A stretch of DNA of 33,742 nucleotides, from positions 1 through 33,742 of IMG/VR virus record IMGVR_UViG_3300017645_000114. One strand, 5' to 3'. A program made the position numbers and the translations under genes. Below, one piece after another: positions 4,250 to 8,555 of this stretch (position 1 is the stretch's first letter; each line of letters starts with the position of its first letter). This stretch comes from a virus (lineage: Duplodnaviria > Caudoviricetes). The notes under the pieces are model-generated. The model was not told where the DNA came from. It did no database searches and worked only from the letters and a program-made list of their open reading frames with translations.

Positions 4250-4579
4250 ATGAAGCCGGTTTCTTTCGTGGGAGACTCGCTCGACGCAATCCGTTCTTTT
4301 CCTGACGGAGCGCGCCGAGAGGCAGGTTTCCAGATCGAACGGGTTCAGCGTGGCCTTGACCCAGACGACTGGAAGCCGATGAAAACGGTCGGCGCCGGCG
4401 TCCGGGAAATCCGCGTTCGAGACGCCGCCGGCGCCTTCCGCGTGATCTACATCGCTACGCTCGCAGATGCCGTCTACGTGCTTCACGCCTTTCAGAAGAA
4501 GTCGCAGGCGACATCGAAACGCGACCTTGACCTTGCAATAGCGCGGTTCAAGGACTTGATGCGAAGGGCCGAGCGATGA
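4250..4579 (+). CDS. higB: Type II TA toxin, RelE/ParE (HigB/Gp49-like) family
   Basis: Motifs DWKPMKTVGAGVREIRVRD..GAFRVIY and VYVLHAFQKKSQAT; toxin-first gene order. Confidence 0.9.
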   Translation: MKPVSFVGDSLDAIRSFPDGARREAGFQIERVQRGLDPDDWKPMKTVGAGVREIRVRDAAGAFRVIYIATLADAVYVLHAFQKKSQATSKRDLDLAIARFKDLMRRAER

Positions 4580-4860
4580 AAGAACAGAAATTCAAAAGCG
4601 TCTGGGATGCCATCGAAGATTCCCCCGCCGACGCCGCCAATTTGAAGGCGCGATCGGACGTGATGATCGCCATCCGCGAGGTCGTGGAGAACTGGAAGGT
4701 GACGCAGGCCGAGTCTGCCAAGCGGCTTGGGATAACTCAGCCGCGCCTCAACGATCTCTTGCGCGGGCGGATCGACAATTTCAGCCTCGACGCCCTTGTG
4801 AATCTTGCTGCGCGGGCCGGACTATCGGTCCGCGTGAAGATCGCGAGATCGGCGGCTTGA
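4576..4860 (+). CDS. higA: XRE-family HTH antitoxin (HigA-like)
   Basis: SVWDAIED N-terminus and HTH TQAESAKRLGITQPRLNDLLRGRIDNFSLDAL; ATGA overlap with the toxin. Confidence 0.9.
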   Translation: MKEQKFKSVWDAIEDSPADAANLKARSDVMIAIREVVENWKVTQAESAKRLGITQPRLNDLLRGRIDNFSLDALVNLAARAGLSVRVKIARSAA

Positions 4861-4890: not shown

Positions 4891-5190
4891 TTACGGATCA
4901 ACTTCGAACTCTCGCACTCGTGTCTGGTCAAAGACGCCGTCGAAAGCGTCGTCTGGAAGATCGGAGCCAAAGACATCGAAGGCGGTCTTGACCTCAGGGT
5001 CGATGAGCGCCCTTTCCAATGTCGAACGCAGAACCCTGGCCTTCTCCGGCTTGTTGCGGAGTGTCTTGGCCAGGGCGCGGATCAGTTCTGCATCGGCCCT
5101 CGTCGCCTGAACTTCTATGCGCACAAGCCCGCGCGCAGCCGCGCGGCGGGGGTGCGTGCTCGTCGCCTGAATTTGCGACTTGCTGGCCAC
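4891..5190 (-). CDS. Antitoxin-like small protein (99 aa), apparently orphan
   Basis: GTG at 5190 with GGAGA RBS and a perfect TATAAT at 5223-5218. RHH-like N-terminus (RGLVRIEVQA..DAELIRALA) and acidic tail (DLPDDAFDGVFD) typical of antitoxins preceding PIN toxins. Confidence 0.6.
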   Translation of the reverse strand: MASKSQIQATSTHPRRAAARGLVRIEVQATRADAELIRALAKTLRNKPEKARVLRSTLERALIDPEVKTAFDVFGSDLPDDAFDGVFDQTRVREFEVDP

Positions 5191-5267: not shown

Positions 5268-6011
5268 ATGATGACGATCGAGACCCGGCTGGTTGACCGG
5301 CTGATCCTCTACGTTCGTAACGCGCGGACCCATTCGGATGATCAGATCGCGCAGATCGCCGCGTCGATCGTAGAGTTCGGGTTCGTAAACCCGATCCTGA
5401 TCGGATCGGATGACGTGATCGTCGCCGGGCATGGCCGGCTGCTCGCCGCAAGGCGACTGGGATTAGCCGAAGTGCCGGTGATCGTTCTCGATCATCTGAG
5501 CGAAGCGCAGCGACGCGCGCTCGTGATCGCCGACAACAAGCTCGCGGAGAATGCGGGCTGGGACGAGACCATGCTGCGCGCCGAACTCGCGGCGCTTCGC
5601 GACGAGGATTTCGATCTCGATCTTCTCGGCTTCGCCGAGGCCGAGCTTGGTCGCCTTCTCGATGCGATGGACACCGAGGCGCCGGCTCCGGCAGAGGCAT
5701 CGACCGAGCAAGCGGAAGCCGTATCCTCGACGCTCGCCGAGCGCTTCGGCATTCCGCCCTTCAGCGTACTCGACGCGCGAAAGGGGTGGTGGCAGGACCG
5801 TAAGCGAGCCTGGATCGATCTGGGAATCCGATCCGAGCTCGGTCGCGGCGGGGCGCCAGGCGGAAGTCCGCGTCCTCTCGACCGCGCCAAGATGGGCCAG
5901 CCATCGCCGATGTCGCGACCTAACGCTGCGCCTGGAGGATCACCCTTGCCCGCCACCGATTATTCGCGCTCGAAAGCGCGTGGGGATGGTCGCGGGCGGG
6001 CGCTGCCATGA
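5268..6011 (+). CDS. ParB/Srx N-terminal domain protein with methyltransferase-associated C-terminal segment
   Basis: ParBc motifs RNARTHS..QI..IAASI.EFGF.NPIL, IVAGHGRLLAA and IADNKLAENAGWD, followed by LAERFGIPPFSVLDARKGWWQDRKRAW. Confidence 0.85.
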   Translation: MMTIETRLVDRLILYVRNARTHSDDQIAQIAASIVEFGFVNPILIGSDDVIVAGHGRLLAARRLGLAEVPVIVLDHLSEAQRRALVIADNKLAENAGWDETMLRAELAALRDEDFDLDLLGFAEAELGRLLDAMDTEAPAPAEASTEQAEAVSSTLAERFGIPPFSVLDARKGWWQDRKRAWIDLGIRSELGRGGAPGGSPRPLDRAKMGQPSPMSRPNAAPGGSPLPATDYSRSKARGDGRGRALP

Positions 6012-6808
6012 CCAACCTCACCTTCGTAAAGGGCGACCGCGATCCCGATGCGCTTGATCCGGTGAGCGCGGCGATCCTCGAGGTGGCCTCAACCGGCACT
6101 TCGATCTTCGATCCGGTCCTATGCGAAATCGCTTACCGCTGGTTCTGTCCGCCGAGTGGCGTGGTCCTTGATCCGTTTGCCGGCGGATCGGTTCGCGGCA
6201 TCATCGCTTCACGTCTTGGTCGACGCTATGTCGGCATCGAATTGCGGCCCGAGCAGGTTGAAGCAAACATCGCCCAGCTTCATCTCGCCAACGTTCCGGC
6301 GCCGGAATGGCGCGCAGGCGATGCCCGGAACGTCTCAGCCCTGGCTGCCGATGTCATGGCGGACATTCTATTCTCTTGCCCGCCCTATTGGAATCTCGAA
6401 CGATATTCGGACGATCCCGCCGACCTTTCGAACATGGGACGCGACGAGTTCCTCGCCGCCTACTCGGCGATCATACGCGATGCGGTCGCGCGTCTCCGGG
6501 ATGATCGCTTCGCAGTATGGGTGATTGGCGATATTCGCGATGACCGCGGCTGCTACGTGAATCTGCCCGGCAAGACCGTCGATGCCTTCGAGGCCGCCGG
6601 CGCGCGGCTCTACAACGACGCGATCCTCGTGACCGCCGTTGGCTCGCTGCCCGTCCGGGTCGGGCGGCAGTTCGAGGTCTCGCGCAAGCTCGGTCGGACG
6701 CACCAGAACGTGATGGTCTTCATCAAGGGCGACCCGCGCAAAGCGACCGAAGCCTGCGGGTTGGTCGAGTTCGGCGAGATCCAATCCGAAGAAGGACAAG
6801 AGCTTTGA
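6008..6808 (+). CDS. SAM-dependent N6-A/N4-C-type DNA methyltransferase-fold protein
   Basis: Motif I VLDPFAGGSVRG, YVGIEL and motif IV FSCPPYWNLERY; ATGA coupling to the ParB gene. Confidence 0.85.
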   Translation: MTNLTFVKGDRDPDALDPVSAAILEVASTGTSIFDPVLCEIAYRWFCPPSGVVLDPFAGGSVRGIIASRLGRRYVGIELRPEQVEANIAQLHLANVPAPEWRAGDARNVSALAADVMADILFSCPPYWNLERYSDDPADLSNMGRDEFLAAYSAIIRDAVARLRDDRFAVWVIGDIRDDRGCYVNLPGKTVDAFEAAGARLYNDAILVTAVGSLPVRVGRQFEVSRKLGRTHQNVMVFIKGDPRKATEACGLVEFGEIQSEEGQEL

Positions 6809-7575
6809 CGCAGGGTGGCGCATCGGCATCGCGCGCGGCTCATGCCCGCGAGGTAGCCGGTTCAATTCCGGCCCCTGCTCCCATCGTCATCGAGCACGAA
6901 GGCGTGCTCGTCGTTCGTGACGATCTTTATCCGGGCGGTACGAAGGCCCGCTTTCTCGGGCTCGTCTTCGAAGGCGCCGACGAGGCGGTCTATGCCAGCC
7001 CCGCGGAAGGTGGCGCGCAGACGGCGCTGGCGACGGTCGCAAGGCAACTGGGAAAGCGCGCGACGATCTTCGTTGCGCGACGGAACAAGCCGCATGATCG
7101 CACGCTCGAAGCCGCTCGCCTCGGGGCGAAGGTCATCGAGGTCGAACCCGGTTATCTCTCGGTCGTTCAGGCCCGCGCACGCGAATACGGCGCACGGACA
7201 AGTGCGAGGCTTGTGCCCTTCGGCGTCGATATGCCCGAGGCGATCATTGCGATTGCTGCGGCTGCGCGCGCGACGGGGATCGAGCCGGATGAGATCTGGT
7301 GCGCTGCCGGTTCCGGAGTGCTTGCCCGCAGCCTGGCCAGGGCTTGGCCGCATGCGCGGCGCCATGTCGTTCAGGTGGGGCGCACACTCAGCCCGTCGGA
7401 CGTGGCCGGCGCCGAGATACATGTCTATCCCTTGGCGTTTGGCCGCGAAGGGCGTTGCCGCCCGCCGTTTCCATCCGATCCACACTACGACGCGAAGGCC
7501 TGGGAGCTATGCGCGGCTCGGAAGGGTCCGGGCCGCGTCTTGTTCTGGAACGTCGCTGGACCGTCGAAGCCGTGA
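6805..7575 (+). CDS. PLP-dependent enzyme (fold type II, PALP / ACC-deaminase-like), phage type
   Basis: VVRDDLYPGGTKAR (PLP lysine), YASP..GGAQ.ALA, EIWCAAGSG and YDAKAW..VLFWNV. TTG start overlaps the MTase TGA, with GAAGGA RBS at 6791-6796. Confidence 0.8.
   Translation: MTQGGASASRAAHAREVAGSIPAPAPIVIEHEGVLVVRDDLYPGGTKARFLGLVFEGADEAVYASPAEGGAQTALATVARQLGKRATIFVARRNKPHDRTLEAARLGAKVIEVEPGYLSVVQARAREYGARTSARLVPFGVDMPEAIIAIAAAARATGIEPDEIWCAAGSGVLARSLARAWPHARRHVVQVGRTLSPSDVAGAEIHVYPLAFGREGRCRPPFPSDPHYDAKAWELCAARKGPGRVLFWNVAGPSKP
6809..6883 (+). tRNA. tRNA(CAU), initiator-Met-like with non-canonical identity bases, embedded in the PLP-enzyme ORF
   Basis: Acceptor GCAGGG/CCCTGC with C1xU72 mismatch; 3-bp D-stem with A14, G18, G19, A21; anticodon stem CGCGG/CCGCG, loop CTCATGC; variable loop AGGTA; T-arm GCCGG-TTCAATT-CCGGC; encoded CCA at 6881-6883. 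Confidence 0.75.
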
Positions 7576-7673
7576 TCATCCTAGCAATGCGTCCGGCCGT
7601 TGATCTATCGCAATGACCTCGCTGTTCTCATTGACACAGTTCGATGTGGGCACGTTCGAGAACGGATTTCGAG

Positions 7674-8243
7674 ATGCCACAGGATCAAACGCGTTACGAT
7701 GGGGTGTCGATTACCCTCCATTGGATCGTGGGAATTTCGATAGTCGCGGTCGCCGCGATTGAACTTCTGCGTGGAGAAGTTTTTCCGAAGGGCAGCTACT
7801 TTCGTGAAGCTCTGAAAGCCCTTCACGATCCGGCGGGCACTGTTGTCTTTGGACTCGTAATTTTGCGTCTAATGTGGCGCTCGGCGCATTCACCGCCGGC
7901 CATGCCAGAGACTATGCGCAGTTGGGAGAAAGTTGCGGCCAAACTCACCCACTACACGCTATATACGATGATGGTGATTATTCCACTTAGTGGCATCGCA
8001 TATACGTTGGCACGTGGCAGGTCGATTGATTTCGGGCTTTTTCAGATCATCTATCCCCTCGATCATGTTTTCAGTCGGAGCGCGACACGAACACTGAAGG
8101 GAATCCACGAGTTTCTCGGACAGGCGGTGCTGGTGCTTGCGTTTGTCCACGCGGCAGCTGCTCTTTGGCACCATTATTTTCGCAAGGATGATGTGCTGAC
8201 TCGCATGCTACCAATGCCAAGCGGCAAGTTGCCGGAAAGATAA
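7674..8243 (+). CDS. cybB: Di-heme cytochrome b561 (CybB/YceJ family), moron
   Basis: RY...ITLHW, LH...G, AKLTHYTLY, IHE and HAAAALWHHYFRKDDVLTRMLP; four hydrophobic helices; AT-richer than the flanks. Confidence 0.9.
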   Translation: MPQDQTRYDGVSITLHWIVGISIVAVAAIELLRGEVFPKGSYFREALKALHDPAGTVVFGLVILRLMWRSAHSPPAMPETMRSWEKVAAKLTHYTLYTMMVIIPLSGIAYTLARGRSIDFGLFQIIYPLDHVFSRSATRTLKGIHEFLGQAVLVLAFVHAAAALWHHYFRKDDVLTRMLPMPSGKLPER

Positions 8244-8288
8244 TTGAGTCGTGATCGAATGCATCCTTCGTCGATGCGACAAGAGACG

Positions 8289-8555
8289 ATGAGGAACCCT
8301 CTTTTTGTAGCTGCGCTCACTGCGGCCCTTTTGATCGAATCCTCTGGATCGTCGACTGCACAAACGCCAGCTGAGGCATACCGCAAGGGCTGCGGCGGTT
8401 GCCATTCATCGGAAAGATCATTGCGACGCATCCCCAAAGCGTCGGAACCCGAGCGTCGAGCATGGATTGAGAATTTTACGTCGCAGCATCCATGTGAACG
8501 CGACGACTTGAAACCGTTGATCGTGATTTATTTACTAGAAAAGTCGGCACCTTAA
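8289..8555 (+). CDS. Small exported mono-heme c-type cytochrome-like protein
   Basis: Signal peptide MRNPLFVAALTAALL...STA followed by a CXXCH motif (CGGCH). Confidence 0.65.
   Translation: MRNPLFVAALTAALLIESSGSSTAQTPAEAYRKGCGGCHSSERSLRRIPKASEPERRAWIENFTSQHPCERDDLKPLIVIYLLEKSAP

Follow-up and report, generated by a model that had tools for sequence, protein, structure and literature searches.

Rickettsia palindromic elements are selfish, short, structured DNA sequences that are translated within tolerant parts of unrelated proteins, and the attP cores embedded in some phage genes (Mx8 int, the repressor gene of mycobacteriophage BPs) are translated, exact copies of the 3′ half of a host tRNA. 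For a whole tRNA within a bacterial open reading frame (ORF) we found one published case, in which selC, the gene for tRNA-Sec, is nested in the selB ORF of Alphaproteobacteria; that report describes it as the first bacterial example (Mukai, 2021; PMC8124441). The literature that we searched, with subscription journals largely outside its reach, contained no tRNA nested in a phage ORF. Here we describe a tRNA(CAU) that is read in frame as the N-terminus of a pyridoxal phosphate (PLP) enzyme in a phage. Judged from sequence, what is new is this N-terminal nesting in phages, together with putative in-frame tRNAs in the genes of four or more further families of phage proteins.

The window, that is, the whole 33,742-nt stretch of DNA analysed, is a partial lambda-like phage genome in which replication genes are followed by ParB, methylase-fold and PLP enzyme genes and then by terminase, portal, capsid and tail genes (Table 1). 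The ParB gene start was set by the profile match, the ORF finder having placed it at 5019. An ATGA overlap couples the ParB and methylase-fold genes, and the TTGA overlap at the next junction likely provides translational coupling of the methylase-fold and PLP genes. Directly upstream of the ParB gene lies a Gp49/RelE-like and HTH_37 gene pair (4250-4860, + strand), probably a toxin-antitoxin module, and the interval between the PLP gene and terminase (7644-8555, + strand) holds genes for cytochrome b561 and for a small protein with CxxCH. Among the 40 ORFs scanned in this partial contig there was no integrase. Between 3900 and 7800 we detected no promoter-like site and four terminator-like sites, against 3.3 expected by chance. 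Our literature search returned nothing on the ParB-methylase-PLP module; in Erythrobacter phage R6L, the methylase and PLP enzyme are fused.

Table 1. Positions of the features discussed, in the window (plain numbers) and at related loci (locus prefix)
Feature	Position	Strand	Basis
ParB-N-domain gene	5268..6011	+	PF02195; phrog_15396 from residue 84 of the ORF starting at 5019
N6/N4 methylase-fold gene, upstream partner	6008..6808	+	PF01555, phrog_12517, phrog_498
Shine-Dalgarno-like GAAGGA, 8 nt before TTG	6791..6796	+	sequence
Fold-type-II PLP enzyme gene, 256 aa, TTG start, tRNA as codons 2-27	6805..7575	+	PF00291 (E 2e-9), phrog_7093, Foldseek
TTGA overlap of PLP start and methylase stop	6805..6808	+	TTG 6805-6807, TGA 6806-6808
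tRNA-encoded residues 2-19, predicted disordered	6808..6861	+	pLDDT <50 for residues 1-19
tRNA(CAU), initiator-derived phage type, 75 nt	6809..6883	+	ARAGORN, Rfam RF00005; anticodon 6841-6843
Invariant Pro26 codon, tRNA bases 73-75 after 6-nt in-frame deletion	6880..6882	+	36 aligned proteins; L001/L012 ends
GTG (Val34), rejected alternative start	6904..6906	+	3′ of invariant P26, H31, G33 and strand 27-31
Terminase small subunit, TTGA overlap then in-frame tRNA(CAU)	L121:603-1274	-	PF03592
Terminase small subunit, TTGA overlap then in-frame tRNA(CAU)	L146:1150-1818	+	PF03592
Portal-linker tRNA loci	L453, L455, L456, L467, L458, L399; e.g. L458:1118-1266		in-frame whole tRNAs
tRNA(CAU) in Mu-F head protein, codons about 70-95	L362:220-1566	-	
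tRNA(CAU) in C-terminal tails of Cro-like genes	L359, L405, L107, L123		
tRNA-like sequences in long open frames	L105:3-2423	-	
tRNA-like sequences in long open frames	L102/L137; L094/L118; L099:952-1707; L361		

A preliminary description of this locus had recognised a 75-nt tRNA immediately after the methylase TGA, in the frame of the PLP gene, and had proposed Infernal-type scoring. Both programs agree with that placement: ARAGORN, run on all 33,742 bases, returned a single tRNA, at 6809-6883 with anticodon CAT, and Rfam RF00005 scored it at 44.6 bits (cut-off 29; E = 7e-8), with the universal bases present. Other features of that description hold in part. All four arms had been said to pair, but C13·U22 (6821/6829) is mismatched, leaving the D stem with only three pairs; 17/18 family tRNAs have C13-G22. 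Similarly, the sequence clears the family cut-off as a cloverleaf, but the lowest-energy predicted fold of the 75-mer is a rod, with the cloverleaf 9.1 kcal/mol higher. An encoded CCA is indeed present, but its C74 and C75 form, with C73, the invariant Pro26 codon and are not the family's original CCA: comparison of the L001 and L012 ends indicates that a 6-nt in-frame deletion of the original 3′ end left the window's U72, C73 and CCA. These bases therefore represent no designed identity change. Three other loci with the window-type 3′ end have no encoded CCA. The unusual end bases stem from the deletion and a private point change, and the suggested decoy or nuclease-resistant role cannot be read from them, though other members of the family may have one. 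The window tRNA also scores below those of L010 (60 bits) and L031 (58.8 bits). We conclude that it is a weakened, drifting member of its family in which the protein frame is intact; from its sequence, it may still be a chargeable tRNA, with our expectation leaning slightly against this.

The PLP frame runs for 256 codons without a stop, straight through the tRNA. The PALP domain, fold and conserved lysine motif of fold-type-II PLP enzymes are present, with K47 invariant, and Foldseek matched the predicted structure to the D-cysteine desulfhydrase/ACC deaminase fold (E = 9e-12); a sequence search of the PDB gave no match. The predicted model has a mean pLDDT of 87.6, with residues 1-19 below 50 and the strand at residues 27-31 confident. 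Many homologues without the tRNA carry unrelated N-terminal extensions, so this position is tolerant, and the 24-residue leader encoded by the tRNA is probably inert. Upstream of the TTG, the GAAGGA duplex has a predicted energy of -2.6 kcal/mol, versus -3.9 to -5.9 kcal/mol at the other 30 tRNA-bearing loci. The GTG at 6904, which had been described as the only later start, is the first in-frame ATG, GTG or TTG after the TTG. Initiation of the enzyme there, which had been put forward as an observation that would count against a dual role, is unlikely, as it would remove P26, H31 and G33, invariant in 36/36 aligned proteins, along with strand 27-31.

A protein search yielded 2011 homologues of the PLP enzyme, with the tRNA-encoded peptide at the N-terminus of 22 of the 37 that were fetched, and at 80 viral loci the junction carried a tRNA in 16, a remnant in one and neither in 63. 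Three collections (19, 56 and 20 stretches) were scanned, without regard to frame, for a T-loop lying 40-70 bases ahead of the RDD..GG.K motif. Once three loci lacking the motif had been dropped and duplicates merged, 101 distinct loci remained; the tRNA is present in 31, of which one is identical to the window, and missing from 70. Hosts named for relatives comprise a Pseudorhodoplanes MAG together with an unclassified proteobacterium. The tRNA is in frame at all 31 loci (window included), in four lengths: the common one, one shorter by 3 nt with a different D arm, one shorter by 6 nt at the 3′ end (the window's) and one longer by 12 nt. No more than three independent indels underlie these lengths; L064, a tRNA remnant, adds a 48-nt deletion that keeps the frame, and has a frameshift further on. 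An ATG or TTG occupies the stop overlap at 30/31 tRNA-bearing loci, the exception having CTG there and ATG as the next codon, and 60/70 tRNA-less loci start at the same overlap. The tRNA-bearing ORFs exceed 240 codons in 30/31 cases; that of L179 stops at 194. Individual tRNAs deviate: L198 has an altered anticodon, the 72-nt copy of L015 scores under the Rfam cut-off, and the T stem of L186 (1439-1522; 36.3 bits) is weakened by a 12-nt in-frame insert that places a small hairpin in the variable region.

In a quick LG+G4 tree of the enzyme core (47 selected rows), the tRNA state requires four changes, and a single clade of tRNA-bearing enzymes was rejected (AU p = 2e-12). The window's enzyme core is sister to P0003, a protein called without the extension (a gene call only). 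The sequences suggest that the junction cassette likely moved between enzyme lineages by recombination; repeated loss is also possible. In the 72-nt class, joining the 7 bases before the insert to the 5 after it reproduces the opening 12 bases of the L030 gene, which has no tRNA. This match is consistent with a clean insertion, and the 72-nt class may represent a second insertion. Two PLP homologues, P0035 and P0061, have a different T-arm-like N-terminal peptide, possibly from other tRNA insertions or remnants. In L253 (6-3834), a host-type fMet gene and an exact repeat, 46 nt long, of its 3′ part bound a 3.8-kb segment that contains the 3′ part of the methylase gene, the nested tRNA and the PLP gene, an arrangement that looks like a remnant integrated at fMet.

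At fourfold sites the nested tRNA varies far less than the genes around it. Across 17 loci less than 93% identical, diversity at these sites is 0.091 in the tRNA (8/15 sites invariant) and 0.448 in the enzyme body (4/118 invariant; p = 6e-8). When five 72-nt loci are added, diversity is 0.20 versus 0.45 and the excess of invariant sites is not significant (p = 0.10). Compared with the upstream methylase gene (11 loci), the values are 0.108 and 0.42; in neither flanking gene does any stretch of 17 sites drop under 0.25. Because the loci share ancestry, the p-values exaggerate their independence, and low diversity would also follow if the cassette had spread recently. Further, the fourfold sites of the tRNA are A/T-rich in a G/C-rich gene (53% vs 21%), and among 18 distinct 75-nt tRNAs the number of changes per position is 0.25 in stems and 0.23 at universal loop bases, versus 2.5 in free loops. 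The cloverleaf is the best predicted fold in 9/18 and lies within 4.4 kcal/mol of it in 16/18, the outliers being the window (+9.1 kcal/mol) and L198 (+11.5 kcal/mol). The inverted U15:A48 pair is as the preliminary description gave it and covaries in relatives (U-A 13, G-C 4, A-A 1; n = 18). Double changes at 28:42 and 29:41 distinguish the 72-nt from the 75-nt class; among the 18 distinct tRNAs of the 75-nt class no stem pair has changed on both sides, and covariation accordingly rests on 15:48 and the difference between classes. The comparison of homologous junctions that had been proposed as a check of the dual role thus comes out in its favour for frame and stem constraint, and in this limited form for covariation. 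These patterns indicate that the tRNA is under selection of its own at the level of the family, a conclusion that is weak for the window's copy.

Bacterial initiator tRNA-fMet combines the CAU anticodon with G2-C71, C3-G70, G30-C40 and G31-C39, a C1·A72 end, A73 and A11-U24. We checked these features against the host-type genes of genomes carrying relatives. The window tRNA shares the anticodon and the G2-C71, C3-G70, G30-C40 and G31-C39 pairs; it has C1·U72 and C73 at the end of the acceptor stem, where C1·A72 occurs in 8/18 family tRNAs and A73 in 14/18 (A72/A73 being recorded in 14/18). A11-U24 is absent from all 18, each of which has C11-G24. C29-G41, which had been listed as a departure from fMet, is a weaker one than supposed: in two genomes carrying relatives it breaks no rule of three G-C pairs, because the host-type fMet there has A29-U41. 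The alignment score is 52.5 to host-type fMet and 42 to the other host CAU tRNA, and because of this closer match the nested family looks initiator-derived. The window tRNA, with A4-U69 and G5-C68, also fails the E. coli TilS rule for lysidine modification of tRNA-Ile2 (C4-G69, C5-G68; PMC2500205). An att site or attP core was rejected on account of mismatches throughout against the fMet genes of two relative-carrying genomes.

The same type of tRNA(CAU) is nested, in the same frame, in portal, terminase small subunit, Mu-F and Cro-like genes, and once two Gln tRNAs take its place; these non-PLP copies score 52-64 bits (Rfam). The terminase genes of L121 and L146 repeat the layout of the PLP gene, with an upstream stop, a TTG overlap, the tRNA and then the domain (a later TTG exists in L146 and none in L121); no CAU tRNA was found in 31 terminase relatives scanned of 80 fetched. 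In the portal family, 18/22 loci have a variable linker between conserved blocks. Whole, stop-free, in-frame tRNAs occupy five of these 18 linkers and 13 are without; the five comprise two different CAU tRNAs and, in L458, a tandem of Gln(UUG) and Gln(CUG), while L399 has a third CAU tRNA at the linker site. One portal gene with a nested tRNA (L411:1060-2667, - strand) also contains an in-frame LAGLIDADG domain, probably an intein. In the set retrieved by pattern, each of the seven copies nested in non-PLP genes with domain support measures 75 nt, and of the 121 others 39 have a length divisible by three, in a post hoc comparison. For 39 non-PLP tRNAs, the lengths of the flanking open frames did not differ by frame (p = 0.61 upstream, p = 0.19 downstream); nesting is therefore a minority state of the tRNA family.

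Several candidates were set aside. Frames over the tRNA in L138, L338, L377, L380, L449 and L145 are apparent false extensions before a downstream start, a verdict that in L377 and L449 relies on domain position only. Long frames through the tRNA in L105, L102/L137, L094/L118, L099 and L361 have weak or no domain support and were not counted; that of L105 is open for more than 800 codons, with a ParB-like domain just 5′ of the tRNA. Viral contigs L340, L346, L358, L368, L369, L423, L425 and L432 have short CAU tRNA-like genes (72-73 nt) with a tiny D arm.

An open frame over an fMet-type tRNA is common, mostly a false gene call, and alone proves little: of 138 family tRNAs, 95 are open in the nested frame and 67 and 47 in the two remaining frames, and databases hold thousands of short translated tRNAs. 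A profile of the tRNA-encoded peptide gave 4384 matches among 1.84 billion proteins, which we did not use as evidence; the top 150 have a median length of 93, only one of the 30 longest has a clean Pfam domain (P0256, LuxR-type), and the 12 inspected are translated tRNA arrays or repeats. In a soil metatranscriptome, three exact contigs fall on the module, none over the tRNA, and a contig of one relative spans the junction at depth 2.8; we did not count these as expression because DNA could explain them and the contigs show no ends.

Because the frame is kept, the fourfold sites are near-frozen and initiation at 6904 would cost the enzyme invariant residues, the nested-tRNA family likely encodes both products, enzyme and tRNA. 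The dual mRNA/tRNA element of the preliminary description is thereby upheld at the level of the family, through frame conservation and RNA constraint, with the window's own copy weakened. We think it rather probable, from the arrangement of the sequence, that each transcript gives either the enzyme with a tRNA-encoded leader or a tRNA whose excision severs the ORF from its start codon. Ribosomes arriving by coupling at the TTGA overlap would read the tRNA as a disordered leader, unfolding the cloverleaf as they pass. An untranslated transcript would fold; RNase P would cut one base after the start codon, the 3′ end would be trimmed and the tRNA freed, destroying that copy of the ORF. The split between products would be passive, and the insertion would have survived because this one frame of an initiator-type tRNA is naturally stop-free and the N-terminus of the enzyme tolerates extensions. 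We favour a passive split over a selected switch because the tRNA is optional and occurs wherever a protein tolerates the insert.

The preliminary description had proposed that processing cuts the ORF off its start as a switch on the enzyme. The severing follows from the geometry; a regulated switch is possible only, and we hold it to be unlikely. Under this explanation, faltering initiation, for example when the host initiator tRNA is cut, would free the cloverleaf, restoring a CAU tRNA and shutting off the enzyme. The geometry does make the products exclusive, with RNase P expected to cut a single base past the start codon, and a terminase gene came to have the same layout at its start; Mukai (PMC8124441) proposes alternation for selB/selC, and phage tRNAs have been proposed as counters to anticodon nucleases (PMC10264068). 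Yet most homologues lack the tRNA, nested copies also lie within linkers mid-gene or in the C-terminal tails of other, unrelated proteins, as tolerated sites predict, and we found no tie between the tRNA and the enzyme's job. It is also noted that, as a rule, phages avoid carrying an fMet tRNA if the anticodon itself is the target (PMC10264068).

That the element is a mobile insert or decoy in the shape of a tRNA, with a fold preserved so that it can spread or titrate host enzymes and not for decoding, is in our judgement quite unlikely. This explanation would account for the entry of several different tRNAs, including the tandem Gln pair, into one portal linker, for inserts that end at or close to CCA, for the flanks of the 72-nt insert that match the start of the tRNA-less L030 gene and for the absence of the host fMet pair A11-U24 from all 18. 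Retention of the CAU anticodon in 17/18, conservation of the universal tRNA bases and the mostly free-standing state of family members speak against it.

That the tRNA is dead throughout, an old insertion persisting as harmless coding sequence, is improbable. Decay in the copies of the window, L198, L186 and L064 fits this account, which may hold for the window's copy alone and not for the family; the frozen, A/T-rich fourfold sites and the pattern of stems versus loops do not. Use of the tRNA only, with the enzyme starting downstream at GTG 6904 or a non-standard codon, is very improbable: a GTG or ATG stands at the Val34 position in 19/31 loci, and in L253 an ATG follows the CCA at a distance of five bases, but such a start loses the invariant residues and core strand, there is no ATG, GTG or TTG within 13 codons before the RDD motif in 4/31 loci, and all indels keep the upstream frame. 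Finally, the proposal that the methylase-fold and PLP enzymes use the tRNA as their substrate or aminoacyl donor has only physical linkage in its favour and is scarcely credible, given that the tRNA is absent from 70/101 junctions, that no other tRNA lies within 3 kb in tRNA-less viral loci and that the same type nests in portal and terminase genes.

A broader picture is one in which phages routinely hide working tRNAs in protein genes, essential portal and terminase genes included, by way of the one stop-free frame of initiator-type tRNAs, and in which an overlap close to a gene start senses translation, setting free a spare CAU tRNA once ribosomes no longer cover the mRNA. We regard this as a speculation with some chance of being right, and the odds against it. 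Related tRNA-bearing and tRNA-free loci, found side by side, provide test pairs for competition between RNase P and the ribosome on one RNA, and for the question of why single tRNAs are retained by phages. Annotation is affected too: a gene caller that does not allow a tRNA and a coding sequence to overlap would truncate or split such genes.

Set against known systems, the PLP enzyme has the same fold as D-cysteine desulfhydrase (PDB 4d99) and an ACC deaminase homologue (1j0a), with a TM-score of about 0.67, but is shorter and 17-18% identical. Free-standing phage fMet-type tRNA(CAU) genes belong to the same sequence family (138 distinct members retrieved); they are mostly intergenic and most often 76-77 nt long, whereas the nested non-PLP copies are 75 nt. 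Unlike Rickettsia palindromic elements, the insert here is a complete tRNA that is itself constrained, and unlike attP cores it comprises the whole tRNA and has no long exact match to host fMet. It is an entire tRNA on the same strand as a real ORF (PF00291), with the frame kept in 31/31 loci. The resemblance to selC/selB is close: in both, a whole same-strand tRNA, its length mostly a multiple of three, lies in an ORF beside a stop/start overlap, is conserved yet not essential, with remnants in some lineages, and has led to processing and translation being proposed as alternatives, both cases being bioinformatic only. By contrast, selC is C-terminal, chromosomal and the partner of its host protein, whereas the phage tRNA is N-terminal, apparently initiator-derived and without an evident link to the enzyme, and phage nesting, unlike that of selC in selB, recurs in several unrelated genes.
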